The notes under the pieces are model-generated. The model did not search any database and was not told the DNA's origin. It worked only from the letters and a program-made list of their open reading frames with translations. A stretch of 64,000 nt of DNA, from the NCBI GenBank assembly GCA_963770835.1, contig CAVYRH010000011.1, positions 96,001-160,000 of the forward strand. Direction: 5' to 3'. This document shows, in pieces, positions 869 through 19,189 of this stretch (its first letter is position 1; each line of letters starts with the position of its first letter). This DNA comes from an uncultured Pseudomonadota bacterium. GTDB lineage: Bacteria > Oederibacteriota > Muellerivitia > Muellerivitales > Muellerivitaceae. Made by a program: the position numbers and the translations under genes.

Positions 869-920
869 TGTACACGAAGGGGAGTCCCAAGCCCCTGGCT
901 TGGCGCAGTGGCTTTGGACA
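869..920 (+). repeat. 28-bp repeat variant with 24-bp hairpin insert
   Basis: TGTACACGAAG GGGA [GTCCCAAGCCCCTGGCTTGGCGCA] GT GGCTTTGGACA; same layout as 7318-7369. Confidence 0.75.
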
Positions 921-1265
921 GGTTGAAATCCCATCTATATCGGACAGGGCCGTCTTTGGGGTTTCAACACCTGGAAATCCGCCCCTCAACCATTGATTGA
1001 AAATGCGGCAGGAACTTTTAAAGGGTCCCCATGCCCCGCCCGCGCCCATAACCACCACATCGAAAATTTTCACGGGCCGCCTATTACCGGATTTACGAAA
1101 AACGTTTGCTTATTTCTTTGACCCGAAAAAAGCGTTAAAGCTCGAAACGCATATCGCGCGCCAATGGGCTCCACAGGAAAACGTGCCTACCTAATTTAAC
1201 TTTCCAAAGCTTCCAAAGCCGGCTGGCCCTTCCTTAAATGGAATCGAAGGACAAAGGAGGCGTCT

Positions 1266-1766
1266 ATGCTGACTCAAACCAAAAGCTGGTTGGTTTTGTT
1301 GTTGGTCTTAGGAGTGTTGTTGGTCCCGGTTTTTTCAAAAGCCGAACCGGTCTACAAGCCCACCTCCGACGGGGGAAACTTCGGGCTTGGCCTGGAACTG
1401 GGGGAACCCGGTTCCTGGGGCATTGACGGGAAGGTGTGGATCGACCGCGAGAACGCCTTTCAAGGCGCGGTCAAACTGCCGTCCGGTGCGGCTGTTTTGC
1501 AGCTGGATTATCTTTGGCACGACTTCAACCTCATCCACATGAAAAACACCGAGGGTGAATGGCCCTTTTATGTGGGTGTGGGCGGCGACTTGTCCCTTGA
1601 CAGCCCGGCGGCCCTGGGGGCCCGGGTGCCGGTGGGGATGTCGTACATCTTCGACAAGAGGAACGTGCCGGTGGATATCTACCTTCAACTGGTGCCGACC
1701 TTGTGGTTGACCGGTGACACAAGCTTCGACGTTTACGCGGAATTCGGCGCCCATTACTACTTTTAA
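1266..1766 (+). CDS. Secreted outer-membrane beta-barrel-like protein
   Basis: AGGAGG RBS, signal peptide, amphipathic strands, C-terminal HYYF. Confidence 0.7.
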   Translation: MLTQTKSWLVLLLVLGVLLVPVFSKAEPVYKPTSDGGNFGLGLELGEPGSWGIDGKVWIDRENAFQGAVKLPSGAAVLQLDYLWHDFNLIHMKNTEGEWPFYVGVGGDLSLDSPAALGARVPVGMSYIFDKRNVPVDIYLQLVPTLWLTGDTSFDVYAEFGAHYYF

Positions 1767-1789
1767 CAAGAAACGACAAGGAGGACGAA

Positions 1790-2074
1790 ATGAACGGGCA
1801 TGAATTGGTCTGGTACCTGATCGTCGGCCTTTTAACCGGCTGGATCTCCAGCCTCCTGGTCCAAGGGCGGGGCATGGGCATGGTCCGGGACACGGCCGTG
1901 GGCATTCTGGGGGCCCTTTTTGGGGGCTGGATGGCGAGGGAACTCGGCATTCCCATCGGCGGGTTTTTCAGCGCCTTGGCCATGGCCATCGTGGGATCGG
2001 TGCTTTTCCTGGTCGTCCTGAGGGCTTGGTTCTTTTCCCGGGGCCGGAAAGTCTGGGTGATCAAAACCAAGTAA
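1790..2074 (+). CDS. GlsB/YeaQ/YmgE family stress-response membrane protein
   Basis: LIVGLLTGW...VGILGALFGG pattern; GGAGG RBS. Confidence 0.8.
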   Translation: MNGHELVWYLIVGLLTGWISSLLVQGRGMGMVRDTAVGILGALFGGWMARELGIPIGGFFSALAMAIVGSVLFLVVLRAWFFSRGRKVWVIKTK

Positions 2075-2120
2075 CAAAATCCATCTAGCCCCTTGAAAAG
2101 GGGTCGGGAAGGGGGTTGTT

Positions 2121-2662
2121 ATGATAATAAGACTTTTGATTCTTGGTTTGGTGTGGCTGGGGCTGGCGGCCCAGCCCGGTTTCGGCCAAAGCCTCGGCCT
2201 GGAGGCAGGGGCTAATTTCGCGAACCTGAACGGCAAGGACGTCAACAACGTCGTAGCCTCCCGTTTGGGTATCGTCGGGGGCGGATTCCTCTATTTGCCC
2301 TTAAGCCCAAGCTTGGCTTTCCAGCCGGAGGTCCTTTACGCCCAAAAGGGCGCGAAAACGGCCGACGGAACCACAACCTACCAGTTGGATTACGTGGAGA
2401 TCCCCGTGCTTTTGGAGATTTCCCTGGGCTTGCCGGTAGTCGCCCTGGAATCCTGTTGGGGCCGTCCTTTGACGCCAATGTGGCGTCCAGCGGCCTCTCC
2501 AACGTGGCCCCCGCGGATGTGGGGGTCATCGGGGGCGTTCAAGTCCATTTCGACCCCGTTCTTTTGAGCGGGCGCTACGAGCTGGGTTTGACCAACGTGA
2601 CATCGGACCGGAATTTACAAAACGGAACATTCACCTTCCTGGTGGGGCTGATGTTCCTTTAA
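2121..2662 (+). pseudogene. PorT-like outer-membrane beta-barrel, frameshifted near 2443
   Basis: GLEAGANF, FQPEVLYAQKG, LDYVEIP in one frame; GRYELGLT...FLVGLMFL in another. Confidence 0.7.
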
Positions 2663-2674
2663 AAACGACGAAGG

Positions 2675-2706
2675 GAACCGCCAAGGGCCTTTGTCCTTGG
2701 CGGTTC
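2675..2706. other. Intergenic stem-loop
   Basis: GAACCGCCAAGG...CCTTGGCGGTTC 12-bp inverted repeat, no U-tract on +. Confidence 0.55.
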
Positions 2707-2734
2707 AAAAGGTTTATGGCTTTGGGGAGGGAAT

Positions 2735-3433
2735 ATGGAAACAACCTCCGGTACGGTTGCAACCGAGCCTTTTCGTTTCTACGAATGCATCCTCATGGTG
2801 AGGCCCTTGGGGATAAGGGCGTTGAACCTGCGCGAATTCCTCTTCGCCTTGAAAAGCGTGGATACGGAATGCATCCATCACCACTTCCACCAGGCCTCGC
2901 TGAAACACCAGTTCGACATCGCCGACTACCCCAGCGATTTCGCCCAATGGGCCGCCCTGCTGCTGGAGGACGCCGCGCTGGGTGAAAAACTCGGCAACCT
3001 GAATCCCTACCACTTCGAAAGCCTGGACTTGCTGAAGGAAAACCTGCTGGAAATCGTGGAGGACCACCTTTTCGATTCACCTTTCGTGCCCTCGGCCAAA
3101 CCGGGAATGGAATTCCACTTTTGCTCCGACACGACCCTGGTGGTGGACACGGGCCGGGAAGTGCGGACCTTGAGCCAGTTCCGGCAGTCTCTGGAACACG
3201 TGGACAACAGCTCCCTTTACTACCATTTCTACGAATCCCGGTTCCGGCTGCCGGGCACCCACTCGGACGATTTTTCGAATTTTTTCGAGAAGTCCCTGGG
3301 CTTGGCCGGCCTGGCCCAGGCCGTGAGGTCCATGGAGATTTATTTCACCCGGCTTAAGGAAGTGCGGGCCGGCCTGATGAACCTGGTGGACCAGGAGCTG
3401 GGACGCAGTCAATCGAAGGAGGGGATGCCATGA
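2735..3433 (+). CDS. DUF5752-like protein associated with TreT
   Basis: Internal duplication (IHHHFH/SDFAQW and SLYYHF/DDFSNF); ATGA overlap with next gene. Confidence 0.7.
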   Translation: METTSGTVATEPFRFYECILMVRPLGIRALNLREFLFALKSVDTECIHHHFHQASLKHQFDIADYPSDFAQWAALLLEDAALGEKLGNLNPYHFESLDLLKENLLEIVEDHLFDSPFVPSAKPGMEFHFCSDTTLVVDTGREVRTLSQFRQSLEHVDNSSLYYHFYESRFRLPGTHSDDFSNFFEKSLGLAGLAQAVRSMEIYFTRLKEVRAGLMNLVDQELGRSQSKEGMP

Positions 3434-4680
3434 CCACCGCCACGGCCGTGAGAACTCCGGCTCCCAGCCTGGCCGAATACGAAAGGGTCATCGGAAAGCA
3501 GCGCATCGACCTCCTGCAACGCCTGGCCGGCCGCTTGAAAGGCAAGACCCTGACCCACGTGAATTCCACCAAGGAAGGGGGAGGGGTGGCGGAAATCCTC
3601 AACCGGGCCGTGCCGCTCTTGAACGACTTGGGAATCGCCACCGACTGGCAGGTGATCGAGGGAAACCCGGATTTCTTCAAGGCCACCAAGGCCTTCCACA
3701 ACGGCCTCCAGGGCAACGAGGTGGCCTTGAGCCCCCGGATGCGGGAGGCCTACCTGGCGGTGAACGAAGAAAACGTGAAAAGGCTCCGGCTGGAAGCGGA
3801 CGTGGTTTTTATCCACGACCCCCAGCCGGCGGCCCTGATTCAACATGCCCGTAACCGGGGCAAATGGCTGTGGCGCTGCCATATCGACGCCAGCCGCCCC
3901 AACCGCGGCGTTTGGAAGTTCCTGCGGCAGTTCGTCGTCCGGTACGACGCCTCAGTGTTTTCCATGCCGGCCTTCGCCCAAAGCCTGCCGCACCCGCAGT
4001 ACATCGTCCATCCTTCCATCGACCCCTTGAGCGATAAAAACCGGGATTTAACGGAAGTGGAAATCCAGGTGGTCCTGGACCGGCTGGAGATTCCCCGGGA
4101 TAAGCCGATCATCCTGCAGGTCTCGCGGTTCGACCGGTTCAAGGACCCCCTGGGGGTGGTGAAGGCCTTCCAGATGGTGCGCCAAAGCCGCCCCTGCCGG
4201 CTGGTCCTGGCCGGCGGCGGCGCCAGCGACGACCCGGAGGGATTGGAGGTGCTGGCCGAGGTGAAAAGCGCGGCCGGCAACGACCCCGATATCCACATCC
4301 TGCTGCTTCCCTCGGACAGCCACCTGGAAATCAACGCCCTGCAAAGGGCGGCCAACGTGGTGGTGCAAAAGTCGCTCAAGGAGGGTTTTGGGCTGACCGT
4401 GACGGAAGCCCTGTGGAAAGGAAAGCCCGTGGTAGGGGGCGCCACGGGGGGAATCACCCTGCAGGTGCACAACTACCACACGGGCTTCCTGGTGCATTCA
4501 GCCGAGGGCGCGGCCTACCGCATCCGCTACCTGCTGAGCCGCCCGGAGGACGGGCTTCGGATGGGGAAAACGGCCCGCGAGTTCGTGCGGGACCACTTCC
4601 TGATCACCCGGCAGGTGCAGGATTACATGGCCTTAATGCTGATCCTGCTGTCGGGCGAAACGCGGGAGATTTTCATTTGA
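3430..4680 (+). CDS. treT: Trehalose synthase, GT4 glycosyltransferase
   Basis: HVNST..GGGVAEIL, IHDPQP, WRCHID, QVSRFDRFKDP, EGFGLTVTEALWK. Confidence 0.85.
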   Translation: MTTATAVRTPAPSLAEYERVIGKQRIDLLQRLAGRLKGKTLTHVNSTKEGGGVAEILNRAVPLLNDLGIATDWQVIEGNPDFFKATKAFHNGLQGNEVALSPRMREAYLAVNEENVKRLRLEADVVFIHDPQPAALIQHARNRGKWLWRCHIDASRPNRGVWKFLRQFVVRYDASVFSMPAFAQSLPHPQYIVHPSIDPLSDKNRDLTEVEIQVVLDRLEIPRDKPIILQVSRFDRFKDPLGVVKAFQMVRQSRPCRLVLAGGGASDDPEGLEVLAEVKSAAGNDPDIHILLLPSDSHLEINALQRAANVVVQKSLKEGFGLTVTEALWKGKPVVGGATGGITLQVHNYHTGFLVHSAEGAAYRIRYLLSRPEDGLRMGKTAREFVRDHFLITRQVQDYMALMLILLSGETREIFI

Positions 4681-6134
4681 AAACTCCGGTGCTGTCCAGG
4701 CCGGGGCTGGAGTTCCAGCCCCCCTCCATCGAAACCCGCCGACTCATCGTCGTCAGCAACCGGGAACCCTATGTCCTCAAGAAAACCGGCCGGACCTGGG
4801 CCTACCAAAGGACCATCGGCGGCTTGGTCTCGGCCCTGGACCTGGTGCTTCGCGTCACGAAGGGAACCTGGGTTTCCTGGGGCGGCGCCCAGGGCTATTC
4901 CTTTTCCGGCGGCGGGGAAGACCAGCGCGAGGCCGCGGGCAAACCGCCCTACCGGCTGGCCTCGGTCAACCTGTCGGAAAAACAGGTCGAGCATTTTTAC
5001 GAGGGCTTCTCCAACGGCCAGCTCTGGCCCCTGTTCCATTCCTTCCTGGAGCGCTGCCGTTTCAACGGGGAGGATTGGCCTTATTACAAGCTGGTCAACC
5101 AAAAGTTCGCCGTGGCGGCGGAAAAACTGGCCCGGGCAGGGGACCTTCTTTGGATCCAGGACTATCACTTGTGCCTGGCGCCAGGGATGATCCGCGCCAA
5201 AAGGCCCCGGCAGAAGATCGGCTTTTTCTGCCACATCCCCTTTCCTCCCCCGGAGGTTTTCCGGGCCCTGCCCCGGCGCAAGGAACTGCTCCAGGGGCTG
5301 CTGGGTTCCACCCTGATCGGCTTCCAGGGCCTCCGGGCCCGGAACAACTTCCTGGAGTGCGTGGCCGAAATCCTCCCGGAGGAGGCCCAGGTGCGTAACA
5401 ACACGGTTTTCCTGGGGGACCATGACTGCCGCGTGATAGCCTGCCCCATCGGCATTGACTTCGTTTTCTACAAGTCCCTGGCCGAATCCCGCGCCGCGGA
5501 GGAGAAGGCCCTGGCCTTGAAGAAAGAGGTCAACTGCCGCTTCATCGGCCTGGGCGTGGACCGGCAGGATTACACCAAGGGCATCCTGCAGAGGCTCCTG
5601 GCCATCGAGCGGCTTTTGGAGGACCATCCGGCCTACCGGAAAGAGCTGGTCTTCCTCCAAGTGATGGTTCCCAGCCGGGCCCATTTGCCCGAGTACAAGG
5701 CCCTGAAGGCGGAAATCGAGCTGGCCGTGGGCCGCATCAACGGCAAGTTCCAGGACCGGACCTGGAGCCCGATCCTTTATTACTACAAGGGATTCACGCC
5801 CAACGAGCTGGCGGCTTTTTACCGCCTGGCGGATTTCGCGCTCGTCACCCCCTTGAGGGACGGCATGAACCTGGTTTCCAAGGAATACGCGGCCTGCAGC
5901 GTGAAAAACGCGGGATCGCTCATCCTTTCCGAGTTCACCGGCGCCGCCGAACAACTGAAGGAGGCCTGGCTGGTCAATCCCTACGACATTGGGCAGGTGG
6001 CGGATACGATCCACCAAGTCCTGAACCTGCCCCGGGACGAAGTGGAGCGCCGCATGTCGAGCCTGCGCTACCGCATCCACCAGCAGGACATCCATTGGTG
6101 GGTGGAAACTTTCTTGAGGGAATTATTGGCCTAA
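4677..6134 (+). CDS. otsA: Trehalose-6-phosphate synthase (GT20)
   Basis: VVSNR, GGLVSAL, LWPLFH, WIQDYHL, HIPFP, DYTKG, DGMNLV, LILSEF; in-frame TTG overlaps treT stop. Confidence 0.88.
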   Translation: MKTPVLSRPGLEFQPPSIETRRLIVVSNREPYVLKKTGRTWAYQRTIGGLVSALDLVLRVTKGTWVSWGGAQGYSFSGGGEDQREAAGKPPYRLASVNLSEKQVEHFYEGFSNGQLWPLFHSFLERCRFNGEDWPYYKLVNQKFAVAAEKLARAGDLLWIQDYHLCLAPGMIRAKRPRQKIGFFCHIPFPPPEVFRALPRRKELLQGLLGSTLIGFQGLRARNNFLECVAEILPEEAQVRNNTVFLGDHDCRVIACPIGIDFVFYKSLAESRAAEEKALALKKEVNCRFIGLGVDRQDYTKGILQRLLAIERLLEDHPAYRKELVFLQVMVPSRAHLPEYKALKAEIELAVGRINGKFQDRTWSPILYYYKGFTPNELAAFYRLADFALVTPLRDGMNLVSKEYAACSVKNAGSLILSEFTGAAEQLKEAWLVNPYDIGQVADTIHQVLNLPRDEVERRMSSLRYRIHQQDIHWWVETFLRELLA

Positions 6135-6370
6135 ACCGCGGGCGGAAAGCCGGGCCGCCGCCAATTTTGACTGGACGGAAAATTGAAAGGGTGAACATCC
6201 CCTTGAGGGTTTTTTATTTCGCCAATTTCTTCGAACCTCCCCTTGTACCACCCCCAACGACCCGCCTATTGTTGATCTTAAGGGAAGAAAAAATAACGTT
6301 GTCCGGGTGACCCCGGTTCCTTTGGGGAGGGAAGGGGACCGCGGCTCGCCGGGAGAGGAAGGGAAAAGCC

Positions 6371-7147
6371 ATGGATAACTCAGTGGAAGTCAAACTCCTT
6401 TTGGTCGATGACACGCCCGCCAACCTCGTCACCCTGGAAGCGGTGTTGGACCCGCTTCAGTATGGCATCGTGAAAGCCCGCTCGGGATTGGAAGCAATCG
6501 AAATCCTTAGAACCACCGACATCAGCCTGGTCCTTCTCGACGTCCAAATGCCCCAGTTGGACGGGTTTGAGACCGCCAGGCTTATCAAGGAAAGAATACC
6601 GGAGAAAAACGTCCCCATCATTTTCATGACAGCCATTTACAAGGAAGATCCCTACATCCACAAAGGCTATGAGGTGGGCGGCGTGGATTATTTTGGAAAG
6701 CCCTTCGACCCCCAGGTTTTAAAAGCCAAGGTCCGCCTTCACGCCGAGATGTACCGCCAGTCCAAGCTCCTCCAGCAAATGGAGAAAAAACTGGCGGAGG
6801 CGGACCGCAGGTACAAACTGCTGCTCGACAGCGTCTTGGACATCCTTTGCGTGACATCCCCGGATGGAACCCTGGTTTATTTAAACGGGGCTTTTGAGGA
6901 CCAATCGGGCCAAAAAACGGAGGAATGGGTTGGTAAGAACCTCTCCTCCCTGGTCCGTCCCAAAGACCTGAAGGAAGTCATGAGGTGCATTACGGAAACG
7001 GTGAATGAGCAAAAACGCCGTGTGATTAAAACGGCCATCTTGGAAGGGTCGGGCCGGTACCTTCCCGTTAAGCTCTATACCCGGCCCTTTGTCCCGGATG
7101 GGGAAATCGAGGGAGCCATTTGCGTGGCCCGCCGCGTTCCCGCGTGA
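6371..7147 (+). CDS. Response regulator, receiver + PAS
   Basis: LLVDD, LLDVQMP..DGFE, IFMTA, KPFD; C-terminal PAS-like segment. Confidence 0.85.
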   Translation: MDNSVEVKLLLVDDTPANLVTLEAVLDPLQYGIVKARSGLEAIEILRTTDISLVLLDVQMPQLDGFETARLIKERIPEKNVPIIFMTAIYKEDPYIHKGYEVGGVDYFGKPFDPQVLKAKVRLHAEMYRQSKLLQQMEKKLAEADRRYKLLLDSVLDILCVTSPDGTLVYLNGAFEDQSGQKTEEWVGKNLSSLVRPKDLKEVMRCITETVNEQKRRVIKTAILEGSGRYLPVKLYTRPFVPDGEIEGAICVARRVPA

Positions 7148-7152
7148 AGGGT

Positions 7153-7314
7153 ATGGAACAGGGCGAATCCTGCCAATGCCACGAATGCGGTCTTCACTAC
7201 CAAGACCCGGAAACCGCGAAAAAATGCGAAGAGTGGTGCAAAGCCAACCATAGCTGCAACCTGGAGATTACCAAGTTGTCGATTGAGCGGACCCTCAAGC
7301 GGAAACCGTCTTAA
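7153..7314 (+). CDS. Small Cys-rich (zinc-binding-like) protein
   Basis: CHECG...AKKCEEWC...SCNLEI; follows upstream stop closely. Confidence 0.55.
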   Translation: MEQGESCQCHECGLHYQDPETAKKCEEWCKANHSCNLEITKLSIERTLKRKPS

Positions 7315-7317
7315 GGG

Positions 7318-7369
7318 TGTCCGCGGCGGGGAGCACCAAGCCCCCGGCTTGGTGCGGTGGCATTGGACA
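7318..7369 (+). repeat. 28-bp repeat variant with 24-bp hairpin insert
   Basis: TGTCCGCGGCG GGGA [GCACCAAGCCCCCGGCTTGGTGCG] GT GGCATTGGACA. Confidence 0.75.
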
Positions 7370-7419
7370 AGTTGAAATCCCATTCCCGCGCCGGCAATGA
7401 TGGTGTCCAAGCCTTTCAA

Positions 7420-7520
7420 GGGCAAATCTTAGCTATCCCCAATCGCCCTCCTTGGTTATAAAATACCGCAAGTTTTCGGGGTTCCCTGTGAGCTGTTGAC
7501 CGTCAACTGTGAACCGGTGT
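7420..7520 (+). promoter_or_regulatory. Copy 1 of triplicated recN-type leader, putative promoter
   Basis: GGCAAATCTTAGCTATCCC...TTGG(T/C)TATAAAATACCGCAAGTTTTCGGG shared with 17040 and 19838. Confidence 0.65.
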
Positions 7521-7664
7521 TAAAGGCTCCGCGCCTTCCCGGTTTATGGAACGGTTTCTTTTCTCCATTTATTCCGGCAACAGCGATGGTGCGGTGCATA
7601 CATAAATAATAGGGTTACCGCGATTTTACGGATTCTTTTGTGTGATTCAAGAAAGGGAGGGGTC

Positions 7665-8924
7665 ATGGAAGAGCAAGGCGTAAAGTTGTACCCGTACCGA
7701 TGGGTGATGCTCGCGATCTTCATGCTGATCAACGTCATGGTGCAAGTGCTGTGGATCGGTTACGCGCCCATCGCGACGCTGGCGGCTAACGCTTACGGGG
7801 TGAAACGCGAGGACATCGACCTCCTGGCGAACATGTTCATGCTCATCTACATCGTCGTCGCGTTCCCGGCGGCATGGGCCATCGATACCTACGGTTTCAA
7901 GAAAGCCGTCGGGTTCGGCGCCCTGCTGATGGGGGCTTTCGGGCTGCTCCGCGCCTTGTTTCCCACGAATTACACGATGGCGGTCGTGGGATCGATCGGA
8001 ATATCGATCGGACAGCCCTTCCTTTTAAACGCCTTCACCAAATTGGCCGCGCTTTGGTTCCCGCAAAAACACAGGGCCACCATCACGGGCGTCATTTTCC
8101 TCGCCTTGTTTTTGGGCATCGGGCTCGGTGAAGTGCTGGGGCCGGGATTGGTTTCCGCCTGCGGTTTCGCCGGACTGCAGCTCATCTATGGCATCGCCTC
8201 GGCCGTGTCGGCCCTGTTGTTCGTCGCGCTGGCCCGGTCCGGGCCGCCGACGCCGGCGAGCCCCCCGGGGGAGGAGGTCCGCGCGCTGGTGCTGGACAGC
8301 CTAAGGCAGATCCTGAGAAACAAGAGCGTCTACATCCTCTCCCTCGCGCTGTTCCTCGCCAGCGGCATCGTGAACGGCGTGTTCACGCTCATCGACGGGC
8401 TCGACCCGGAGCTTTCGCTCACGGTCGACCAGGGCGTGCTGTTGACGGCCTTGTTGCTCCTCGGCGGGATCGTCGGCAGCATCGTGATCCCCGCGGTTTC
8501 GGACGCCTTAGGACGCCGGAAGCTGGTACTGGTCATCGCGGTTTTCCTGGCGGTGCCCTCCACGTTGGGCTTGGTGCTCGGGAGGGGCTTCGTCCTCGAG
8601 GTCATTTGCTTCTTTGTCATGGGCTTCGCGGTCACGGGCGTCACGCCGGTGGCCTATCAATACGGCGCCGAAATCACCTTTCCGGCCCCCGAGGGAACGA
8701 GCAACGGGGTTTTCGCCCTGGTCGTACAGGCGTCCGGCCTCCTGATCGTCCTGATGGACGCGTTACGGGGAACCTTCCATAACTCTTACATCCCATCCTT
8801 TGTCGGCCTCGCGGTGTTACTGGGGGGATCGGCTTTCCTCATGCTATCGCTCTCCGAGTCCCCGAAGATGGCCCGTCCATCGACAGCCACCGGGCCGGAA
8901 CCGGTATCGGACACAACACTGTAA
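7665..8924 (+). CDS. MFS transporter
   Basis: About 12 hydrophobic segments; IDTYGFK and SDALGRRK loop motifs; GGGAGG RBS. Confidence 0.9.
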   Translation: MEEQGVKLYPYRWVMLAIFMLINVMVQVLWIGYAPIATLAANAYGVKREDIDLLANMFMLIYIVVAFPAAWAIDTYGFKKAVGFGALLMGAFGLLRALFPTNYTMAVVGSIGISIGQPFLLNAFTKLAALWFPQKHRATITGVIFLALFLGIGLGEVLGPGLVSACGFAGLQLIYGIASAVSALLFVALARSGPPTPASPPGEEVRALVLDSLRQILRNKSVYILSLALFLASGIVNGVFTLIDGLDPELSLTVDQGVLLTALLLLGGIVGSIVIPAVSDALGRRKLVLVIAVFLAVPSTLGLVLGRGFVLEVICFFVMGFAVTGVTPVAYQYGAEITFPAPEGTSNGVFALVVQASGLLIVLMDALRGTFHNSYIPSFVGLAVLLGGSAFLMLSLSESPKMARPSTATGPEPVSDTTL

Positions 8925-8948: not shown

Positions 8949-9007
8949 TGGCCACGTCGAAGTATTTCGGTACGCTTTGCTTAATCAAGGCAAGCCCGGA
9001 TTGGGCG
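8949..9007 (+). repeat. Degenerate 28-bp repeat with internal insert
   Basis: TGGCCACGTCG ... CCCGGATTGGGCG resembles left and right arms; intergenic. Confidence 0.4.
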
Positions 9008-9049
9008 AAGAAACAGTAAATATTCGGCTGTCAAATGAGGGAGGCGCGA

Positions 9050-9474: not shown

Positions 9475-9548
9475 ATAATTATTTGAACGTAGATATAAGA
9501 ATGGGATCGGGATTGGATCAGGGAAACCAATTAGAAATCGGGAACCGA

Positions 9549-10644: not shown

Positions 10645-11382
10645 ATGAGAATCTCATTGGAATTGGTTCCCCGAAGCAAAGAATCTATTTTGGAAGAAGT
10701 GGATAAGATTTCCAATAATCTTAAAAAGGTCAATACGATAAACATTCCGGATTTATTGAGATTTGATTTAAGAAGCTGGGTGGCATGCGGATATGTGAAA
10801 CCCTATTTTCAAAACGCGATACCTCATTTTAGGTCGGTTGATATTAACCTGGACGAACCCTTGCCAATGGCCGTTTTTCTAAAAGAGAACCATTTTAAAG
10901 AAATCATTGTGATCAGCGGCGACATTCCCCAGGACATGTCCCGGAAAATGTACCCATCCGATGTGCTGGAAGTCATTAAAAAATTCAAACGGGAAATTCC
11001 TGGAATTAAGATTTACGCCGCCTTTGATCCTTACCGGCAAGGGATTCACAAAGAGCTCGAATATGCCCACGCCAAACGCGATGCCGGCGCCGATGGTTTT
11101 TTCACGCAACCTTTTTTCGATATTCGTCTCTTTGACATTTATTCTGAATTACTTAAATCTTATGAAGTCTTTTGGGGAGTTTCTCCAGTTTTAAGCATAA
11201 GCTCAAAAAATTATTGGGAGACTAGAAACAAAGTTGTATTTCCCGGGAATTTTAGCCCAACACTAGAGTGGAACCGGGAATTAGCTGAGACTGTTTTAAG
11301 CCGGATCACTTCCGTAAATGGAAACGCGTACTTCATGCCCATTAAAGCCTCGATCTTGGATTGTTATAGTGGGATTCTTTAA
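10645..11382 (+). CDS. Methylenetetrahydrofolate reductase-like flavoprotein
   Basis: SLELVP, INIPD, ISGD, K.DAGADGFFTQPFFD. Confidence 0.75.
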   Translation: MRISLELVPRSKESILEEVDKISNNLKKVNTINIPDLLRFDLRSWVACGYVKPYFQNAIPHFRSVDINLDEPLPMAVFLKENHFKEIIVISGDIPQDMSRKMYPSDVLEVIKKFKREIPGIKIYAAFDPYRQGIHKELEYAHAKRDAGADGFFTQPFFDIRLFDIYSELLKSYEVFWGVSPVLSISSKNYWETRNKVVFPGNFSPTLEWNRELAETVLSRITSVNGNAYFMPIKASILDCYSGIL

Positions 11383-11396: not shown

Positions 11397-11424
11397 TGTC
11401 CACGGCGGGGACCCGTCGTGGACA
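11397..11424 (+). repeat. 28-bp repeat, intron-occupied
   Basis: TGTCCACGGCG GGGACC CGTCGTGGACA followed by TC-GTGCC. Confidence 0.9.
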
Positions 11425-11426: not shown

Positions 11427-13405
11427 GTGCCAGGAACAAGGGTGTAGAAGCCAGCAGGTGAGGCTTGATATAAGCCGAGTCCTGACGGGGTAACCGCCTG
11501 AGGGCCCCGAAGTCAGCCTCCGTGGCAAGGTCGAGAGGCCTTGCCCGAAACGAGGTCATAAACCTTCGATTAGGAAGGGAACAATCTTACAGTCCGCAAC
11601 ATCAAGTGAATCCTGCCGCGTCGTGAAGAGTCCGCCGAAAGGCGTAAGAGGAGGCCGAGCCTCGTGTCCACGGGCGAAGGCAACAATCTCACCCTCAATA
11701 CAGGATGGGGTGGGGCGAATCCTCCGGCGTATAGGGAACGGAATGTGGGAAAGGCTGCTACATCAACCTGGGAGATCCTACCCGCCAAAAGACTTGCCGC
11801 TATAAGGCTAAAACCGAAAAGTGGTAAGGGTGGGAGGAAGTCGGAGGGGGCAGTAGTACCGATGAAGGGAAGACAACAAAACTTCCCGGAGGGAAGGGCC
11901 CCTGCTTCAACCAAGCAACCAAAAGAAGTGGAGCATGGAGAATGCCTGAAAAGGCTAACAACTCAGAAGACCAAGTGCGCCAATTCCAGAGGGAGCTATA
12001 TCGAGCGGCCAAGAGGAGCCCGAACCGACGCTTTCATGCGTTATACGACAAGCTCACCCGGTGGGACGTGCTTGTGGAGTCATGGAATCAGGTAAGGGCA
12101 AACCAAGGGCATGGTGGGGTGGATGGAAAGAGTTTGGAGGATATAGAGAAAGAGGGTGTAGGACTCTTTCTCCGGCAAATCCGGGAAGAACTCAGAGCGG
12201 GGACGTATCGGCCACAACCGGTCAAGCGGGTAGAAATACCGAAACCGGATGGCGGAAAGCGGCCACTTGGAATACCGGTTATTCGGGATCGTGTGGTACA
12301 AGCCGCCTGTCGTAAGATGGTCGAACCTATTTTTGAGGCAGATTTCCTGGAAGGTTCCTATGGCTTTCGGCCCAAGCGTTCAGCACATCAAGCTCACGAG
12401 GAAATCCTGAAATGGATAGATCGTGGGTGCAGATTTGTGGTGGATGGAGATATTCGAAAATATTTCGACTCCATTGACCATGCCAAGCTGATGGTGCTGA
12501 TGTGTCAAAGGATCAGTGACAAGAAGATTTTGGAACTCATCCAAAGGTGGCTCGAAGCGGGGGTATTGGCGGAAGGTAGGCTTATGCCCACCTCCGAAGG
12601 TACTCCTCAAGGTGGGGTGATTTCCCCATTACTTTCCAATATTTTCCTTCACCTGTTAGACAAGGTCTGGAACAAAAGATACAAGCAACTTGGAAAACTG
12701 GTGCGTTACGCTGACGATTTTGTGGTGTTATGTCCAACACAACAAAAGGCGGAAGAAAGTCTGAAGGTGCTCAAGAGATTACTTGGGCGGTTGGGGTTGG
12801 AAATGCACCCAGAAAAGACGAGGCTGGTGGAAATGGGACCAGGAAAGGATGGTTTTGATTTCCTTGGTTTCCATTACAGGATATGCCGACCCAATAAGAA
12901 GAGGGGAAAAGCATACATCAAAAGCTGGCCCAAGCGTAAATCCATGGAGAAGATCACTGAGAGGATAAAAGCGGTGACTTCGGAGAAATGGCGGCTGTCG
13001 CTTTCAATGGAAGAATTGGTAAAAACTCTGAATCCGATTTTGAGGGGTTGGGCCAATTATTTCAAAGTGGGGACAAGCTGGAAACAGTTTGATAAGGTGG
13101 ATTTATTTACATACCGAAGGCTATTGTTATTCCGAAGGCGAAAGCATCGTCAGAGGATAATGAATTGGTCGGGGGTCGAAGATGAATTCAAAAGGTTAGG
13201 CCTGTATCGGCTATCTAGACGTGCCATTGTTGCTTGAATGCCGCCGAAATAAAGGTTGTCGGAAAGCCGTATGATCGAAAAGGTCACGTACGGTTTGATG
13301 AGGGGGCACTGGAAACGTGGTTATGAGAGCCGGACTGAGGCCCAATTCGAAAGGGTTGGATTAGCCACCGTACTCTAATGCATACGCGCCAGTGCTCTAC
13401 TCTGC
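11427..13405 (+). mobile_element. Autonomous group II intron (true 5' end may be 11424)
   Basis: GTGCC start, RT ORF in DIV, DV with AGC triad near 13263-13296, long DVI with bulged A, ends CTCTACTCTGC. Confidence 0.93.
11942..13237 (+). CDS. ltrA: Group II intron reverse transcriptase/maturase, no endonuclease domain
   Basis: GVDG, IPKPDGGKRPLGIP..RDR, SYGFRP, GTPQGGVISPLL, YADD, FDFLGF, domain X LRGWANYF; no C-terminal HNH. Confidence 0.96.
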   Translation: MPEKANNSEDQVRQFQRELYRAAKRSPNRRFHALYDKLTRWDVLVESWNQVRANQGHGGVDGKSLEDIEKEGVGLFLRQIREELRAGTYRPQPVKRVEIPKPDGGKRPLGIPVIRDRVVQAACRKMVEPIFEADFLEGSYGFRPKRSAHQAHEEILKWIDRGCRFVVDGDIRKYFDSIDHAKLMVLMCQRISDKKILELIQRWLEAGVLAEGRLMPTSEGTPQGGVISPLLSNIFLHLLDKVWNKRYKQLGKLVRYADDFVVLCPTQQKAEESLKVLKRLLGRLGLEMHPEKTRLVEMGPGKDGFDFLGFHYRICRPNKKRGKAYIKSWPKRKSMEKITERIKAVTSEKWRLSLSMEELVKTLNPILRGWANYFKVGTSWKQFDKVDLFTYRRLLLFRRRKHRQRIMNWSGVEDEFKRLGLYRLSRRAIVA

Positions 13406-13462: not shown

Positions 13463-13852
13463 ATGATCCTAAAATTCCGAACACCTCTTTTGATCACTTT
13501 TGCAATTATCACTGGTTACTTCTGGACCGTTCCAAATATTTTTTTCATGATTTTTAGCAATTTGCTACCGGTCCTGATTATTGCCTTTGGGGTAGTTCTT
13601 CTTTTTCGCGATATGTCCTGGAACCGACAAGCATTGCTCGTGGTTTTCTTTCTCGTCCTGGCTGAGTTCGCCAGAGATACCTTCGTTTGCCTTTTTACCA
13701 ATGGGTGGGCTCAAATGATAGCTAATGGGAATTGGAAGACTTATATCAGAATGTTTGGGGTTCAGGTTGTTGTTGGCCTTGTCGCATGGGGAACAGTGAA
13801 ATTGTTCTTAAAAGTCATTGAACACAAACGGTTTAAACCTAGTAGGCGATAA
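13463..13852 (+). CDS. Hypothetical membrane protein
   Basis: About 4 TM segments; lies between intron end and next repeat. Confidence 0.65.
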   Translation: MILKFRTPLLITFAIITGYFWTVPNIFFMIFSNLLPVLIIAFGVVLLFRDMSWNRQALLVVFFLVLAEFARDTFVCLFTNGWAQMIANGNWKTYIRMFGVQVVVGLVAWGTVKLFLKVIEHKRFKPSRR

Positions 13853-13896: not shown

Positions 13897-13924
13897 TGTC
13901 CACGATGGGGACCCGTCGTGGACA
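13897..13924 (+). repeat. 28-bp repeat, intron-occupied
   Basis: TGTCCACGATG GGGACC CGTCGTGGACA. Confidence 0.9.
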
Positions 13925-13926: not shown

Positions 13927-14724
13927 GTGCCAGAGGAGGGTTTGCAGAGCCAGCAGGTGAGGGAGTAGGCCGATGAGGGTCAACCCAAGTCCTGACCAGG
14001 TAATCACCAGAGAGCCTGGAAGTCAGCCCCCGGCGTAGGATCGAGAGGTCCTGCCCGAAACGGGGTCATAAACCTCATTTAGTGAGGGAACAATCCAGCA
14101 GTCCGCAACATCAAGTGAATCCTGCCGCTTCGTGAATGGGACACCGAAAGGTGCAAGGGGATGCCGAGCCGCGTGTCTACTGGCGAAGGCCACGATCCCG
14201 CTGAAGAATCTGGTAGCAAGCGGGGCAAGTCCTCCGGAGTATGGGGAACGGAATGTTGGAAAGGCTATGCAAGCAAGCTGGGAGATCCTACCCGCCAAAA
14301 GACTTGCCGCTATAAGGCTAAAACCGAAAAGAGGCAAGGGTGGGAGGAAGTCGGAGGGGGTCACAGTACCGATGAAGGGGTGGACAACAAAACCACCCTG
14401 AGGGAAGGACCCCTGCTTCAACCATGTGTCTCAAAGAAGGTAGGCGCTGGAGCATGCCCCAAAAGGGCCAACAACTCTGTAGTACCAAAGCGCGAGGCCT
14501 TTGACAACAGGCACTATGCCGAGCGGCCAAGGGGGAAGTCGAACCTGTAAAGCCGCCGGAGGAGAGGTTGTCGGAAAGCCGTATGATCGAAAAGGTCACG
14601 TACGGTTTGACGAGGGGGCGCTGGAAACGAAGTGATGAGGGAACCTCGTTGGGGCACGGAACCGGAAACGGGGAAACAGATCAAGGAACCCTCTGCACAC
14701 CATCGCGCCAGTGCTCTACTCTGC
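13927..14724 (+). mobile_element. ORF-less group II intron, 798 nt (true 5' end may be 13924)
   Basis: Colinear with the autonomous intron over all domains; DIV reduced to a remnant of the RT 5' end; DV identical. Confidence 0.92.
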
Positions 14725-14782: not shown

Positions 14783-15064
14783 ATGACGAAAGCTCTAAAA
14801 ACTAAGGAAGAACGCATCGAACTGAGGGTAAGGCCCCAGGATAAGCGGTTATTGGAAAAAGCCGCCCAGGCCCAGGGTTTGAGCCTGAGTTCCTATCTCG
14901 TGACGCGGTCCCTCCATGCGGCCCAGGAAGACGCGATCCCGGTTAAAACCTATGTTCCGCCTAAACGGGACCTGGACTTATTCCTAAGGCTTCTGGAAAA
15001 CCCTCCCGAGCCTAACGAAAAGCTTAAAGCGGCGGCACGGCGTTACCAAAAAGAGATATCCTAA
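14783..15064 (+). CDS. DUF1778 (RHH) antitoxin
   Basis: ERIELRV...KAAQ..GLSLSSY...LENPPEPNEKLK. Confidence 0.9.
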   Translation: MTKALKTKEERIELRVRPQDKRLLEKAAQAQGLSLSSYLVTRSLHAAQEDAIPVKTYVPPKRDLDLFLRLLENPPEPNEKLKAAARRYQKEIS

Positions 15065-15073
15065 TCTGCCGTT

Positions 15074-15589
15074 ATGACAGGCCAAAAATGGAAGTTTGTC
15101 CCTATCACGGAAAAACCGAATCTCGAAGCTTTTGACTGTGGCATTTCTGAACTCAATGATTATCTGAAAAAATACGCAGGCCAGAACCACCGCAAGGGGT
15201 TAGGAAGCACTTATGTCCTCATTCCCGTCGAAGGAGAACCCATCGCGGCTGGTTATCACACCTTGAGCATGGCTCAGGTGGAATTGCGTTCGTTGCCAGA
15301 ACCCCAACGTAAAAACCTCCCGAAGTATCCAATTCCCGCCGTTCGATTGGGACGCCTTGCCGTTGACTGCCAATGGCAAGGAACCGGATTGGGGGAGATG
15401 TTGCTGATGGATGCTATTCACCGGTCTGTTGCCGCCGTCCAATCGGTGGCCGCGAAGTATATGATCGTCGATGCCAAAAACAAAAAAGCTGAGGAATTTT
15501 ATTTACGTTACGGGTTTCAACCCTTTGAGGGCGGTTCACACTCATTAGTAGCGGCCATCGATACGTTAAAGGGACTTTTCACGAAATGA
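15074..15589 (+). CDS. GNAT toxin (TacT/AtaT-like)
   Basis: FDCG..ELNDYL, LGRLAVD..WQGTGLG..LL.DA, VDAKN..A..FY..YGF. Confidence 0.9.
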   Translation: MTGQKWKFVPITEKPNLEAFDCGISELNDYLKKYAGQNHRKGLGSTYVLIPVEGEPIAAGYHTLSMAQVELRSLPEPQRKNLPKYPIPAVRLGRLAVDCQWQGTGLGEMLLMDAIHRSVAAVQSVAAKYMIVDAKNKKAEEFYLRYGFQPFEGGSHSLVAAIDTLKGLFTK

Positions 15590-15605: not shown

Positions 15606-15633
15606 TGTCCACGACGGGGACCCGTCGTGGACA
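15606..15633 (+). repeat. 28-bp repeat (perfect arms), intron-occupied
   Basis: TGTCCACGACG GGGACC CGTCGTGGACA. Confidence 0.92.
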
Positions 15634-15635: not shown

Positions 15636-16433
15636 GTGCCAGAGGAGGGTTTGCAGAGCCAGCAGGTGAGGGAGTAGGCCGATGAGGGTCAACCCAAGTC
15701 CTGACCAGGTAATCACCAGAGAGCCTGGAAGTCAGCCCCCGGCGTAGGATCGAGAGGTCCTGCCCGAAACGGGGTCATAAACCTCATTTAGTGAGGGAAC
15801 AATCCAGCAGTCCGCAACATCAAGTGAATCCTGCCGCTTCGTGAATGGGACACCGAAAGGTGCAAGGGGATGCCGAGCCGCGTGTCTACTGGCGAAGGCC
15901 ACGATCCCGCTGAAGAATCTGGTAGCAAGCGGGGCAAGTCCTCCGGAGTATGGGGAACGGAATGTTGGAAAGGCTATGCAAGCAAGCTGGGAGATCCTAC
16001 CCGCCAAAAGACTTGCCGCTATAAGGCTAAAACCGAAAAGAGGCAAGGGTGGGAGGAAGTCGGAGGGGGTCACAGTACCGATGAAGGGGTGGACAACAAA
16101 ACCACCCTGAGGGAAGGACCCCTGCTTCAACCATGTGTCTCAAAGAAGGTAGGCGCTGGAGCATGCCCCAAAAGGGCCAACAACTCTGTAGTACCAAAGC
16201 GCGAGGCCTTTGACAACAGGCACTATGCCGAGCGGCCAAGGGGGAAGTCGAACCTGTAAAGCCGCCGGAGGAGAGGTTGTCGGAAAGCCGTATGATCGAA
16301 AAGGTCACGTACGGTTTGACGAGGGGGCGCTGGAAACGAAGTGATGAGGGAACCTCGTTGGGGCACGGAACCGGAAACGGGGAAACAGATCAAGGAACCC
16401 TCTGCACACCATCGCGCCAGTGCTCTACTCTGC
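15636..16433 (+). mobile_element. ORF-less group II intron, 798 nt, second full copy
   Basis: Appears identical to 13927-14724 at offset 1709; ORF-track translations are identical. Confidence 0.92.
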
Positions 16434-16460: not shown

Positions 16461-16895
16461 TTGCAAGTGAGTTCAACATGGTTCTTTGTCTTATTAACCA
16501 CGCTCTCTTTTGGATTCTTTAATATTTTCATTCGGGCCGCGGGTCCGAAAATTGGCGGGGTTTTGGGGCCGCTGGTTGTTGAGGGATTTGCGATGGCCGT
16601 TCTCTTACTTTTTTTCATTTGGCGAAAGTTTAATGGGTCGGTAGAGTCAGCAACGGCCATGGGGTTGACATTTTCAATGGCCGCCGGATTTTGCGCCGCC
16701 GCCGGTTCGATTGGGTTTTTTATCGTCTTTTCAAGGGGAGGCCAGCTTTCGGTGGCAGGCTCCTTTGTTTTAATCGGGAGCACCATGCTAACGATATTGG
16801 GTGGGTTTATCCTTTTTAAGGAACCGATCAACGCTCATCGTATAGTTGGGATCATTTTGGGACTTATCAGCCTTTACCTTTTGCGGGTGGAATAA
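16461..16895 (+). CDS. EamA/DMT family membrane protein
   Basis: About 5 TM; C-terminal LFKEPI...IVGIILG; AAGGAG just upstream, start may be GTG 16467. Confidence 0.75.
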   Translation: MQVSSTWFFVLLTTLSFGFFNIFIRAAGPKIGGVLGPLVVEGFAMAVLLLFFIWRKFNGSVESATAMGLTFSMAAGFCAAAGSIGFFIVFSRGGQLSVAGSFVLIGSTMLTILGGFILFKEPINAHRIVGIILGLISLYLLRVE

Positions 16896-16916
16896 GCAAA
16901 TCGACGGATTTGATAT

Positions 16917-16944
16917 TGTCCACGACGGGGAACCATTGTGGATA
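16917..16944 (+). repeat. 28-bp repeat
   Basis: TGTCCACGACG GGGAAC CATTGTGGATA, followed by GGTTGAAATCC as at 920 and 7369. Confidence 0.85.
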
Positions 16945-17013
16945 GGTTGAAATCCCTTTAATACCTGGCAGGGCCGTCCTTTGGGTTCCAACACCGCCAA
17001 ATTCTCCCAATCT

Positions 17014-17116
17014 ATTGATTGAATAGACGCTCTTAGCCCGGCAAATCTTAGCTATCCCCAATCGCCCGGCTTGGCTATAAAATACCGCAAGTTTTCGGGT
17101 TTTCCTGTCAGCTGTT
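17014..17116 (+). promoter_or_regulatory. Copy 2 of triplicated recN-type leader
   Basis: Near-identical to 19812-19911. Confidence 0.65.
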
Positions 17117-17141
17117 AACTTCCAACTTCGGAGTAAAAACT

Positions 17142-18431
17142 ATGGCGGTATTTTTTCTGGTCTTGGGTGTCATCGTCGCGGCCGTTGCCCTTCGCTTTTT
17201 CGTCGGGGCCGGGTCGAAAAACAAGAAAGGCAGTCTCCTTGTCTTTTCCTGGGGCGACATCGAGGAAAACCAGGTCCTGAGCGATCTCATCAATGACTTC
17301 ATGAAATTAAATCCGTCCGTGTCGGTCTCGTTGCAGCGCACCCCTTATGTCAATTACTCGGAAACCGTAGTGAGATCCCTTGAGGGACGGGGCCCGGACG
17401 TCCTATTTGTGGAGGTCAATAATTTCGCCGATTTTTTGTACCAAAAAGTCCTGGAACCCTTGGATTCTTACGTCAAAACCGACCGCCTGGATATGACGGA
17501 TTTTTACCCGGCCGTATTGGACCGCTTCACCTCGGAGAAACGAACTTACGTCATTCCCCGCGACACGGCCCCCTGGTGCCTTGTTTATTACAATAAGTCC
17601 GCCTTTGACGAAGCCAATGTGCCTTATCCAAAGGATGATTGGAATTGGGACCAATTCGCCGAAGCGGCGATGAAGGTCCAAAAAATAGGCGCTTCGGGCG
17701 GGGTCATGCGCTGGGGGTTCATTGACGACAAGACCCTTCCGAGCGCGTGGATTTTTAGCGCGGGCGGGACCTTCGCGGACGACGTTCACCAACCCACCCG
17801 ATGGACCTTCACGGACGACCCGGCCACCCTCAAGGGGATCCGGTTCCGTTACGACTTGATCCATAAGTACAAGGTCTCCCTGGCGCCCTCCAAAATAGCC
17901 GGTTTTACCGTGAGCGAAGGCTCGGACATGTTCCGCTTCGGCACGGCCGCCATGTACCTTTCGGGTTTGAAATGGCCCCCCCACTTTCGCGAGATCAAAA
18001 ATTTTAAATGGGATGTGGCCATGCTTCCCAAGGGACCCGGCGGGGAACGGGCCTTTTCCACCGGGGGCTCGGGTTACGGTATTTCGAGGCGATCCGGGAA
18101 CAAACCAACAGCTTGGGAATTGGTGAAATTCCTGACCGGCGCGGAAGCCGAACGAAAAAGGCTGGCCACTGGATTGGCCCAGCCCGCCTTAAGGAAGATG
18201 GCTTATTCCGACCTTTTCCTGGACCGGAATGACCCCTTGAACAAGAAAATTTTGATCGATGCGGTGGAGCACGTTAAATATTTTCCCCTGTGCGGCAATT
18301 GGCAGGAGGTGGAGACCCTGATCACGGCCGGTTTGGAAAACGTGTGGGAGGGGAAGGAAACCCCCGAGGCGGCCATGGATAAATTGCGGCCCCTCCTCCT
18401 GAAGCATCCGCCCCTCACCGTTCCAAAGTGA
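17142..18431 (+). CDS. Sugar ABC transporter substrate-binding protein (orphan)
   Basis: PDV, LEPLD, YYNK..FDEA.V.YP..WNWD, AWELVKFL; no permease or ATPase adjacent. Confidence 0.85.
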   Translation: MAVFFLVLGVIVAAVALRFFVGAGSKNKKGSLLVFSWGDIEENQVLSDLINDFMKLNPSVSVSLQRTPYVNYSETVVRSLEGRGPDVLFVEVNNFADFLYQKVLEPLDSYVKTDRLDMTDFYPAVLDRFTSEKRTYVIPRDTAPWCLVYYNKSAFDEANVPYPKDDWNWDQFAEAAMKVQKIGASGGVMRWGFIDDKTLPSAWIFSAGGTFADDVHQPTRWTFTDDPATLKGIRFRYDLIHKYKVSLAPSKIAGFTVSEGSDMFRFGTAAMYLSGLKWPPHFREIKNFKWDVAMLPKGPGGERAFSTGGSGYGISRRSGNKPTAWELVKFLTGAEAERKRLATGLAQPALRKMAYSDLFLDRNDPLNKKILIDAVEHVKYFPLCGNWQEVETLITAGLENVWEGKETPEAAMDKLRPLLLKHPPLTVPK

Positions 18432-18490
18432 AATTTGAGGTTGGAGGGCCAATGGAACGCTTGCTTTCCGTTTGGAAGGGATTTAATATA

Positions 18491-18512
18491 TTGTTACTCA
18501 ATTAAGTAACAA
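18491..18512. promoter_or_regulatory. Palindromic operator upstream of second TA operon
   Basis: TTGTTACT-N6-AGTAACAA abutting AGGAG RBS. Confidence 0.6.
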
Positions 18513-18522
18513 AGGAGTTCCC

Positions 18523-18777
18523 TTGAAATTCGTGAATATGCGCGACTTGCGCTTGAAAACCCCCTCGGTGATGAAGGGCGTGGAAAAAGGGGAAAAATAC
18601 ATCATTACGAACCATGGAAAGCCCCAGGCCGTCCTGCTGCACCTGACTGAGGACGAAATCGAGGATTTGGTTTATAAGCAACCCGAGTTCATGGACCAAA
18701 TAGAGGAGTCGAGGAAGGAATACGGAAAGAAAGGCGGGGTTCCGCTTTCGGAAGCCCGCAAGCGGCTGGGACTCTGA
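18523..18777 (+). CDS. Phd/YefM family antitoxin
   Basis: VNMRDLR...IITNHGKPQAVL. Confidence 0.85.
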   Translation: MKFVNMRDLRLKTPSVMKGVEKGEKYIITNHGKPQAVLLHLTEDEIEDLVYKQPEFMDQIEESRKEYGKKGGVPLSEARKRLGL

Positions 18778-18778
18778 C

Positions 18779-19051
18779 TTGTCCCTCCTCGTTGAGCTTT
18801 CACCCCGTGCCTTGAGGGATTTGAAGGCCTTTGAAAAAGCCGCGGCAGGGGAAATCCTGGACGGCCTGAAAATCCTCCAAACCCGCCCTTGGCCCGGCCC
18901 TCCCCGAGTAAAAAAACTAGAAGGTTATAAGAATCTTTATCGTTTGAGAATCGGGAATTACAGGTGCCTTTTCGAACCCACTGAAAAGGGAGTGGTTGTT
19001 TTGCGTGTCCTGGACCGAAAAGAACTGGAAAGAATCCTGAGGAATCTTTAA
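18779..19051 (+). CDS. RelE/ParE family toxin
   Basis: A.RDL, VKKLEG...YRLRIGNYR, V..R. Confidence 0.88.
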   Translation: MSLLVELSPRALRDLKAFEKAAAGEILDGLKILQTRPWPGPPRVKKLEGYKNLYRLRIGNYRCLFEPTEKGVVVLRVLDRKELERILRNL

Positions 19052-19067
19052 AGGACGTGAAATGGTT

Positions 19068-19189
19068 TGTCCACGACCTGTCTCCCAACCCGCCTACCTT
19101 AGCCGCCTGTCTCCAGAAGCTTTAGCGAAGGGAGACGGCGACGGTAGGAGTTTTAGTGCAGGGGGAAGCTCGATGAAAGTGGGGCGTAC
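19068..19189 (+). repeat. Left arm of 28-bp repeat with nested hairpin insertions
   Basis: TGTCCACGAC then an element like 9393-9456 carrying an extra CTGTCTCC-AGAAGCTTTAGCGAA-GGGAGACGG hairpin; no right arm. Confidence 0.7.

Follow-up and report, generated by a model that had tools for sequence, protein, structure and literature searches.

Integrons are, to our knowledge, the only gene-cassette capture platform known, and cassette-finding tools rely on the attC site, so arrays like those described here would be missed. We examined a 64,000-nucleotide (nt) stretch (the window; positions 96,001 to 160,000 of contig CAVYRH010000011.1, assembly GCA_963770835.1) from an uncultured soil bacterium of the family Muellerivitaceae, in which short gene units lie one behind another between copies of a 28-bp palindromic site. 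An initial annotation had described an integron-like array built on a site other than attC and had suggested a distinct system of site-specific gene capture or shuffling acting through hybrid sites. That suggestion is supported by the linkage of the site arms to their flanks, the clustering of the sites and their common orientation, and we are confident that the 28-bp site delimits a cassette system with exchange at its centre; the enzyme is probably a short serine recombinase. The source genome (26 contigs, C1-C26) is referred to below as G000, the genomes of relatives by other G-numbers and fetched loci by L-numbers.

The arrays resemble integrons and clusters of attC sites lacking an integron integrase (CALINs) in their co-oriented and mostly one-gene cassettes, their very short flanks, their toxin-antitoxin pairs and their cargo low in guanine and cytosine (GC). 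As in those systems there are arrays without a neighbouring enzyme and the site is a target of group II introns and IS110-family insertion sequences (IS). They differ in that there is no IntI among the 31 family genomes, no attC boxes above chance, a fixed site length of 28 bp as against 55-145 bp for attC, and exchange at the site centre. The system is integron-like in its working without being an integron by integrase or by site, and its candidate enzyme is derived from the large serine integrases. With these (LI/A118, phiC31, Bxb1, SPbeta SprA) it shares the resolvase-type catalytic and recombinase domains, an asymmetric central dinucleotide and, as its long relatives illustrate, an attachment point at a gene 3' end, whereas it differs in having no zinc ribbon or coiled coil, a length of 275-283 amino acids (aa), 13-bp rather than 25-bp half-sites and a single kind of site, with up to about 90 copies in a genome, in place of one attP and one attB that are dissimilar and 40-50 bp long.

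A further parallel is the staphylococcal cassette chromosome mec (SCCmec) island, where units that lie between direct repeats and have no recombinase of their own are acted on in trans by the serine recombinases CcrA and CcrB, which build tandem arrays; a comparable role is proposed for the short enzyme here. Ccr enzymes are full length, use one chromosomal site and move units of tens of kb, whereas the units described here have a median length of 0.8 kb and lie at many loci. Activity of Ccr between two attP sites is mentioned in PMC3783163. The pdif modules of Acinetobacter, served by XerC and XerD, likewise have 28-bp sites around single genes and toxin-antitoxin modules; the present site differs from these in bearing no likeness to the genome's own dif-like site, in its direct orientation and in an asymmetric core of 2 bp rather than 6 bp. 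Usually pdif sites alternate in orientation. Our literature search, mostly of open-access abstracts, found no description of a serine-recombinase cassette array or of the 28-bp site.

Sequence and distribution of the site

Scanning the whole of G000 with a position weight matrix (PWM) built from its own copies, in which a score of at least 18 was taken as a copy and degenerate candidates did not reach 14, gave 87 copies and none in the reversed sequence. The consensus, TGTCCACGACGGG GA CCCGTCGTGGACA, is a perfect 13-bp inverted repeat around GA, which is the sole asymmetry of the perfect site. What had been described as a single array is one of many, as copies are present on 16 of the 26 contigs, among them numerous isolated copies and small clusters, and every cluster is internally of a single direction. 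The sites are thus clustered and co-oriented rather than scattered in both orientations, the pattern that the initial annotation had associated with ordinary repetitive extragenic palindromic (REP) elements. Across G000 and every fetched locus the distinct sites number 525, against none in a reversed control of 6.9 Mb. All are of a single type, with conservation limited to the 28 bp apart from a weak bias in the flanks. The central GA is found on either strand in 506 of the 525, and the canonical inner bases occupy both arms in 287 of 506. Perfect sites, such as that at position 15606 of the window, fold strongly as single strands, while others such as those at 9786 and 16917 fold no better than shuffled sequences. 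Pairs of attC boxes (RYYYAAC...GTTRRRY), noted as absent from the outset, occur at 6 of 507 sites compared with 24 of 2535 shuffled-flank controls and so do not exceed chance. Site orientation agrees with the local GC skew in 11 of the 13 clusters with enough flank.

The site pattern occurs in 21 of the family's 24 other genomes, as well as in the only further genome of the order, and in none of 15 genomes from other orders. In public genomes a scan found at least 173 stretches with the site, whose titles are mostly those of candidate division FCPU426, the rest being Firestonebacteria or unclassified. Viral contigs contained no match to the pattern.

Cassette units and the point of exchange

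To describe the cassettes we used a set of 272 units of up to 2.5 kb, excluding those that start with an intron or IS. The largest open reading frame (ORF) is co-oriented with the site in 253 of these, opposed in 16 and lacking in three, and the stop codon lies a median of 18 bp from the next site. The layout of one gene per unit that had been proposed for the window applies to 185 of the 272 units, which contain a single ORF; it does not extend to the window's own unit at 921-7317 with its approximately seven genes. Median GC content is 0.45, compared with 0.52-0.57 for the large contigs of G000, and 332 of 354 adjacent site pairs are co-oriented.

A number of observations indicate that the units move. 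One 863-bp unit is present in four identical copies in G000, intron-free and exactly bounded by sites. Window cassettes recur elsewhere beside new neighbours, the units carrying an MTHFR-like gene, a TacA-GNAT pair and a Phd-ParE pair each being found directly after a site in other genomes (87-91% identity), and a cas1-cas2 unit retains one rare right arm in G000, G004 and G014. Upstream of recN the arrays of G004 and G020 are almost wholly different in content, and in seven other relatives (three of them with short contigs) the fetched part of this stretch holds no site. We tried this region as a comparison of empty and filled loci, and found no clean empty allele and a gene order differing from that of G000. 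At the heads of the G000 clusters there is no shared upstream gene and no distinct attI or promoter platform was seen, several arrays ending at contig ends; a promoter scan gave 14 against 9.3 expected. Site-to-site joints, circles and strain breakpoints were not seen in shallow public contigs (two sets of four runs), whose low depth makes this uninformative either way.

In order to locate the exchange we compared groups of sites having one flank in common at 95% or more and the other flank differing, leaving out intron and IS flanks. In the 13 groups with a common downstream flank only the left arm differs in six, only the right arm in none, both arms in one and neither in six. Conversely, the 14 groups with a common upstream flank differ in the right arm only in nine cases, the left only in none, both in three and neither in one, a remaining group with N bases being dropped. 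The linkage of arm to flank is significant in the one-sided groups (Fisher p = 0.0002, with the proviso that kin are not independent). Each cassette carries the right arm of a site in front and the left arm of a site behind, and exchange therefore takes place at positions 11-15, so that the breakpoints of shared cassettes lie inside the site, as the initial annotation had expected. As the arms travel separately, duplication of a whole repeat, as in CRISPR-like integration by Cas1-Cas2, is excluded.

These data also bear on the idea that the palindrome is a REP-like or regulatory repeat (a terminator or an RNA-processing hairpin) attracting introns and IS, with the cassettes arising through those elements or by homologous recombination, an explanation that we find hardly credible. 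The many isolated copies and small clusters would suit it, as would the abundance of Y1 transposases, IS110 elements and reverse transcriptase (RT) genes. However, the GTAG foot typical of REP sequences and their associated tyrosine transposases (RAYT) is seen in 14 of 525 sites, a T-tract directly follows 26 of 525, no terminator-like prediction overlaps any site, and the flanks switch at the site centre with arm linkage while identical intron-free cassettes are exactly site-bounded. An Rfam scan of the window returned intron matches only.

A short serine recombinase as candidate enzyme

Searching G000 for the resolvase family gave a single match, a 275-aa gene on contig C17, at positions 7579-8406 of locus L200, that ends 14 bp before a site and is antisense to the cassettes. 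No recombinase adjoins the array of the window, where the initial annotation had pointed to the upstream sequence; the candidate enzyme is on another contig. It belongs to a short clade of 19 proteins of 275-283 aa (68-100% identity) that occupy the top of the homologue list, with the next matches at 59% or below, and that a branch supported at 100/99 sets apart from the rest. The ratio of nonsynonymous to synonymous substitution rates (dN/dS) is 0.08-0.13 in the three of six pairs that are not saturated, and the motifs Y-x-R-x-S and D-R-L-x-R are invariant in 19/19. The short proteins match PF00239 (catalytic) and PF07508 (recombinase domain) above cut-off, while the zinc ribbon PF13408 is absent from the four scanned and present in both long relatives scanned. 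The short genes stop at 274-281 aa, and the clade has neither zinc ribbon nor coiled coil. An AlphaFold model was weak (predicted local distance difference test, pLDDT, 65.5; predicted template modelling score, pTM, 0.43) and confirms the serine-integrase fold only.

The clade is found only together with the site. We recovered ten distinct 3' ends of short-clade genes, eight of them by protein search alone, and all abut a site: in seven a whole site lies 8-34 bp past the stop codon, in one the site is split by an intron, in one it is cut by the contig end 13 bases into the site, and one is a gene remnant with a site where the stop codon would place it. All of these recombinase genes run antisense to the cassettes, compared with 16 of 272 ordinary units. 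None of 80 loci of the long relatives holds the site; in these a tRNA is found at the gene 3' end in seven of ten distinct loci checked, L224, L216, L212, L264, L266, L273 and L311 ending at or in a tRNA gene (Gln, Ser, Asn) on the opposite strand. Site and tRNA both lie at the gene 3' end, so the short clade keeps the geometry of its lineage with a new target. In G000 the recombinase module is 7 kb long with a site at either end, and C3 carries a partial copy of it that has no recombinase. An ArdC-like gene follows the recombinase in G000, G020 and G073, together with RadC in the first two. Searching plasmids with the recombinase gave no match at E 1e-40. In a metagenomic locus, L252, a variant of the site follows the stop codon of a 71% identical recombinase, with differing inner arm bases and the same outer bases and core, and this variant may mark a changed specificity.

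Judging from these sequences, the 28-bp palindrome probably serves the short serine recombinase as a duplex crossover site made up of 13 bp, GA and 13 bp; the enzyme would cut cassettes out and insert them at any other copy of the site. Each recombinase domain would bind one 13-bp arm and the asymmetric GA would set orientation. As the enzyme has no coiled coil, it would make no distinction between attP and attB, and direct repeats would thus excise a circle with one hybrid site, which could then re-enter another site. The recombinase module would be the autonomous member of the system, acting in trans on dispersed arrays including that of the window, and often lost. For a large serine integrase, PMC3783163 states that the recombinase domain covers 13 bp of the half-site and the zinc ribbon positions 16-24, and that an enzyme with the coiled coil deleted excises between all four site pairs tested. 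By analogy, both the footprint and this excision match what would be expected of a 13-2-13 site and a non-directional enzyme.

Several points weigh against this interpretation. With regard to the site, the count of GA cores is partly circular because orientation was called against a consensus containing GA, in 31 of 506 sites the left arm departs from the canonical form, and 22 of 354 adjacent site pairs are opposite, many of these with swapped arms or an ambiguous core. Four of the site groups differ in both arms, the crossover mapping resolves positions 11-15 only with one group informative for 16-17, and three of the four 863-bp copies have the sequence after them in common and may reflect strain variation in the assembly. 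With regard to the enzyme, an intact short gene is present in 5 of 31 family genomes versus at least 22 of 25 checked with sites, many of the assemblies being fragmented, and G021 has 94 pattern matches yet a recombinase fragment only. Adjacency to a site is equally expected of any cassette passenger. The deletion phenotypes given in PMC3783163 include binding about 25-fold weaker without the zinc ribbon and no intermolecular integration without the coiled coil, so the known biochemistry would not lead one to expect such an enzyme to capture a free circle; a natural short enzyme would need another solution to synapsis.

The patchy presence of the recombinase also favours an alternative in which the cassettes move at the site through another enzyme, possibly on a folded single strand as with IntI, and the short serine recombinase is itself a cassette. 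This would sit well with the strong folding of the perfect form and the canonical inner bases of most arm pairs, with the agreement between site orientation and GC skew, and with the use of the site or its edge as a target by two group II intron families, an IS110-family element and a 64-bp insert, as happens at attC. We nevertheless regard it as unlikely, given that for copies like 9786 and 16917 folding does not exceed that of shuffled sequences, that no recombinase family other than the serine one recurs beside arrays in the fetched loci, and that the short recombinase is antisense throughout, its clade having been found only together with the site.

Tyrosine recombinases and other candidates

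The initial annotation had likened the 28-bp site to dif, with an 11-6-11 arrangement for a tyrosine recombinase. In the window there is a tyrosine recombinase gene (60053-61117), which is Xer-like and not IntI, in keeping with the absence of an integron integrase that had been noted. The corresponding explanation, that the site is the dif-like target of this single Xer-like recombinase and a chromosomal equivalent of the pdif modules, gains from the length of 28 bp and from a distribution that fits the site, a single protein with 54-83% identity being present in 23 of the family's 24 other genomes and in the order's one additional genome, compared with about 30% in other orders. However, the Xer-like gene adjoins an unrelated 11-6-11 palindrome of its own in 12 of 12 aligned loci (60013-60040 in the window), found once in G000 by the pattern used, and for this reason we rejected the Xer-like enzyme; the cassette site does not have the ATA-N-TTAT core of that palindrome, which is itself likely to be dif. 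Position 16 of the cassette site varies in 75 of 525 sites, as opposed to position 13 in 6 of 525, and in the L149/L345 group positions 16-17 differ while the upstream flank is the same, both of which argue against a 6-bp overlap. With GA as the sole asymmetry and a recombinase of serine type associated with it, the site reads better as 13-GA-13 than as 11-6-11, and the dif-like explanation is highly unlikely.

In this order a single Xer-like recombinase appears to take the place of XerC and XerD. At 8 of the 12 loci its gene is turned round with respect to both the palindrome and the neighbouring genes, and inverted copies of an AT-rich motif lie on either side of the unit.

Further candidates were considered. 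For IntI the best TIGR02249 score in G000 is 44.6 bits, compared with a cut-off of 265, and none of the 31 family genomes has a match at E 1e-30 among the candidates scored, up to 20 per genome. G000 has 12 matches to tyrosine recombinases, six of one phage-like family and three in a trio resembling the recombinase-in-trio (RIT) arrangement, none being IntI. One tyrosine recombinase on C26 lies 0.7 kb from a single site, its relatives being mostly far from sites. About 12 short hairpins at G000:C26:881465-882158, spaced by about 55 bases and each preceded by a GGTAG-like word, occupy the stretch separating a site from a phage-like tyrosine integrase, and G000 contains five further integrases of the same phage-like family. 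Y1 transposases were likewise rejected as the enzyme, and the IS110 element, which inserts right after the site in four of five copies, is read as a parasite.

Cas1 was considered because three full-length copies (one with an internal stop) lie directly after a site. The arrays nonetheless differ from a CRISPR array in the separate travel of their arms, and cas1 is present in only 6 of the 24 other family genomes and behaves as cargo. The cas1-cas2 cassette of G000 lies behind the 28-bp site and has after it a 37-bp CRISPR-like repeat, present 27 times in the genome and nearly always in direct orientation (G000:C16:36044-37475, C15:15755-17258, C3:47167-101992 and C3:383301-400905). The intervals between these repeats range from about 0.15 to 12 kb and start mid-gene, one of them being a piece of cas1-cas2, and the repeat also occurs in G004, G014 and other loci.

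The array in the window

All features of the array lie on the + strand. The six intact copies of the site that had been listed (9786-9813, 10556-10583, 11397-11424, 13897-13924, 15606-15633 and 16917-16944) are borne out as intergenic and of one orientation, five of them without mismatch to the consensus first proposed and the last with two; the arms of the copy at 9786 do not pair as single-stranded DNA and that at 15606 is the perfect 13-GA-13 palindrome. The interrupted copies fared less uniformly. Those at 869-920 and 7318-7369 are long 52-bp forms with an inner hairpin, the former probably decayed, and that at 9383-9474 is complete, with a 64-bp miniature insert (9393-9456) lodged between its positions 10 and 11, whereas at 19068-19189 the left arm is followed by an insert related to that at 9393 and the right half was not found. 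The further candidates at 8949-9007 and, outside the array, 26376-26403 are degenerate, score below 14 and are possible copies only.

Of the cargo, genes at 9035-9370, 9468-9773 (true start probably downstream of 9474) and 13463-13852 have no Pfam match, and those at 272-859 and 16461-16895 match DUF3109 and an EamA-like family weakly and below cut-off, units related to the latter being found on C15 and in L357. The large unit at 921-7317, whose mobility is putative, includes genes for an outer-membrane barrel, DUF5752, trehalose enzymes of TreT type and family GT20, and a receiver-PAS protein. The remaining units encode a major facilitator superfamily (MFS) transporter (7638-8924; G020 has a 90% identical protein in the same region), a TMEM175-family protein (9859-10527), an MTHFR-like protein (10645-11382; site-bounded in L361 at 90% and L043 at 87% identity) and a solute-binding protein (17142-18431; 82% identical unit in L019 with a site-like sequence after it). 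The toxin-antitoxin pairs that had been proposed are real, comprising a TacA-type antitoxin with a GNAT toxin (14783-15589; 91% identical unit after a site in L357) and a Phd/YefM antitoxin with a ParE toxin (18523-19051; 91% identical unit after a site in L356). A Mutator-family (IS256-type) transposase gene lies outside the array at 30356-31576.

A 127-bp leader is repeated at 7387-7513 before the MFS gene, at 17006-17132 and at 19804-19930 of the window and at G000:C15:23876 and C15:21349 (85-92% identity). It precedes recN as well as several cassettes and is possibly a promoter carried by cassettes.

Elements inserted at the site

The site is a hotspot for parasites. In G000 as a whole, 18 intron 5' ends of a first group II intron family lie 2 nt after the site or a site-like sequence. 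These introns had been missed by the initial annotation: three of the six intact sites in the window have one 2 nt after them, and a fourth intron is represented by bases 1-234, its 3' end (Rfam RF00029 at 84-234), with the 5' end after a site at G000:C11:93884, 2.1 kb upstream of the window. The three others are at 11427-13405 (intact RT/maturase ORF at 11942-13237; 3' end approximate) and at 13927-14724 and 15636-16433, which are identical and have no RT ORF. In many copies of this family the RT ORF is missing, and several have been invaded by IS110. Introns of a second group II family insert between positions 11 and 12 and have the left arm of the site at their 5' junction in 10 of 12 copies; what appeared to be a half-site junction proved to be the 3' end of an intron of this second family. 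The 64-bp miniature element splits three copies of the site at an identical point (window 9393-9456, G000:C5:308128 and C5:317918), possibly with a 2-bp AC duplication. Targeting of attC by such parasites is reported in PMC3001079.

Significance

Taking these lines together, we lean towards a second, independent invention of the integron, in which a tRNA-targeting large serine integrase would have lost its zinc ribbon and coiled coil, taken up a symmetric 28-bp site and become a non-directional enzyme of capture and shuffling. It would spread as a self-mobile cassette, serve dozens of dispersed arrays in trans and carry genes from genus to genus within one uncultured lineage. With a 275-aa enzyme and a 28-bp site this would be an unusually compact serine recombination system, one that may serve as a small bidirectional recombinase for DNA assembly, and it offers a testable case of a serine integrase working without domains that are regarded as necessary for strong binding and for synapsis. 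Because group II introns target the site as they target attC, the arrays also provide another system in which to ask how one-gene cassettes originate. If the enzyme is confirmed, the stockpiling of cassettes would have evolved twice from different chemistry.

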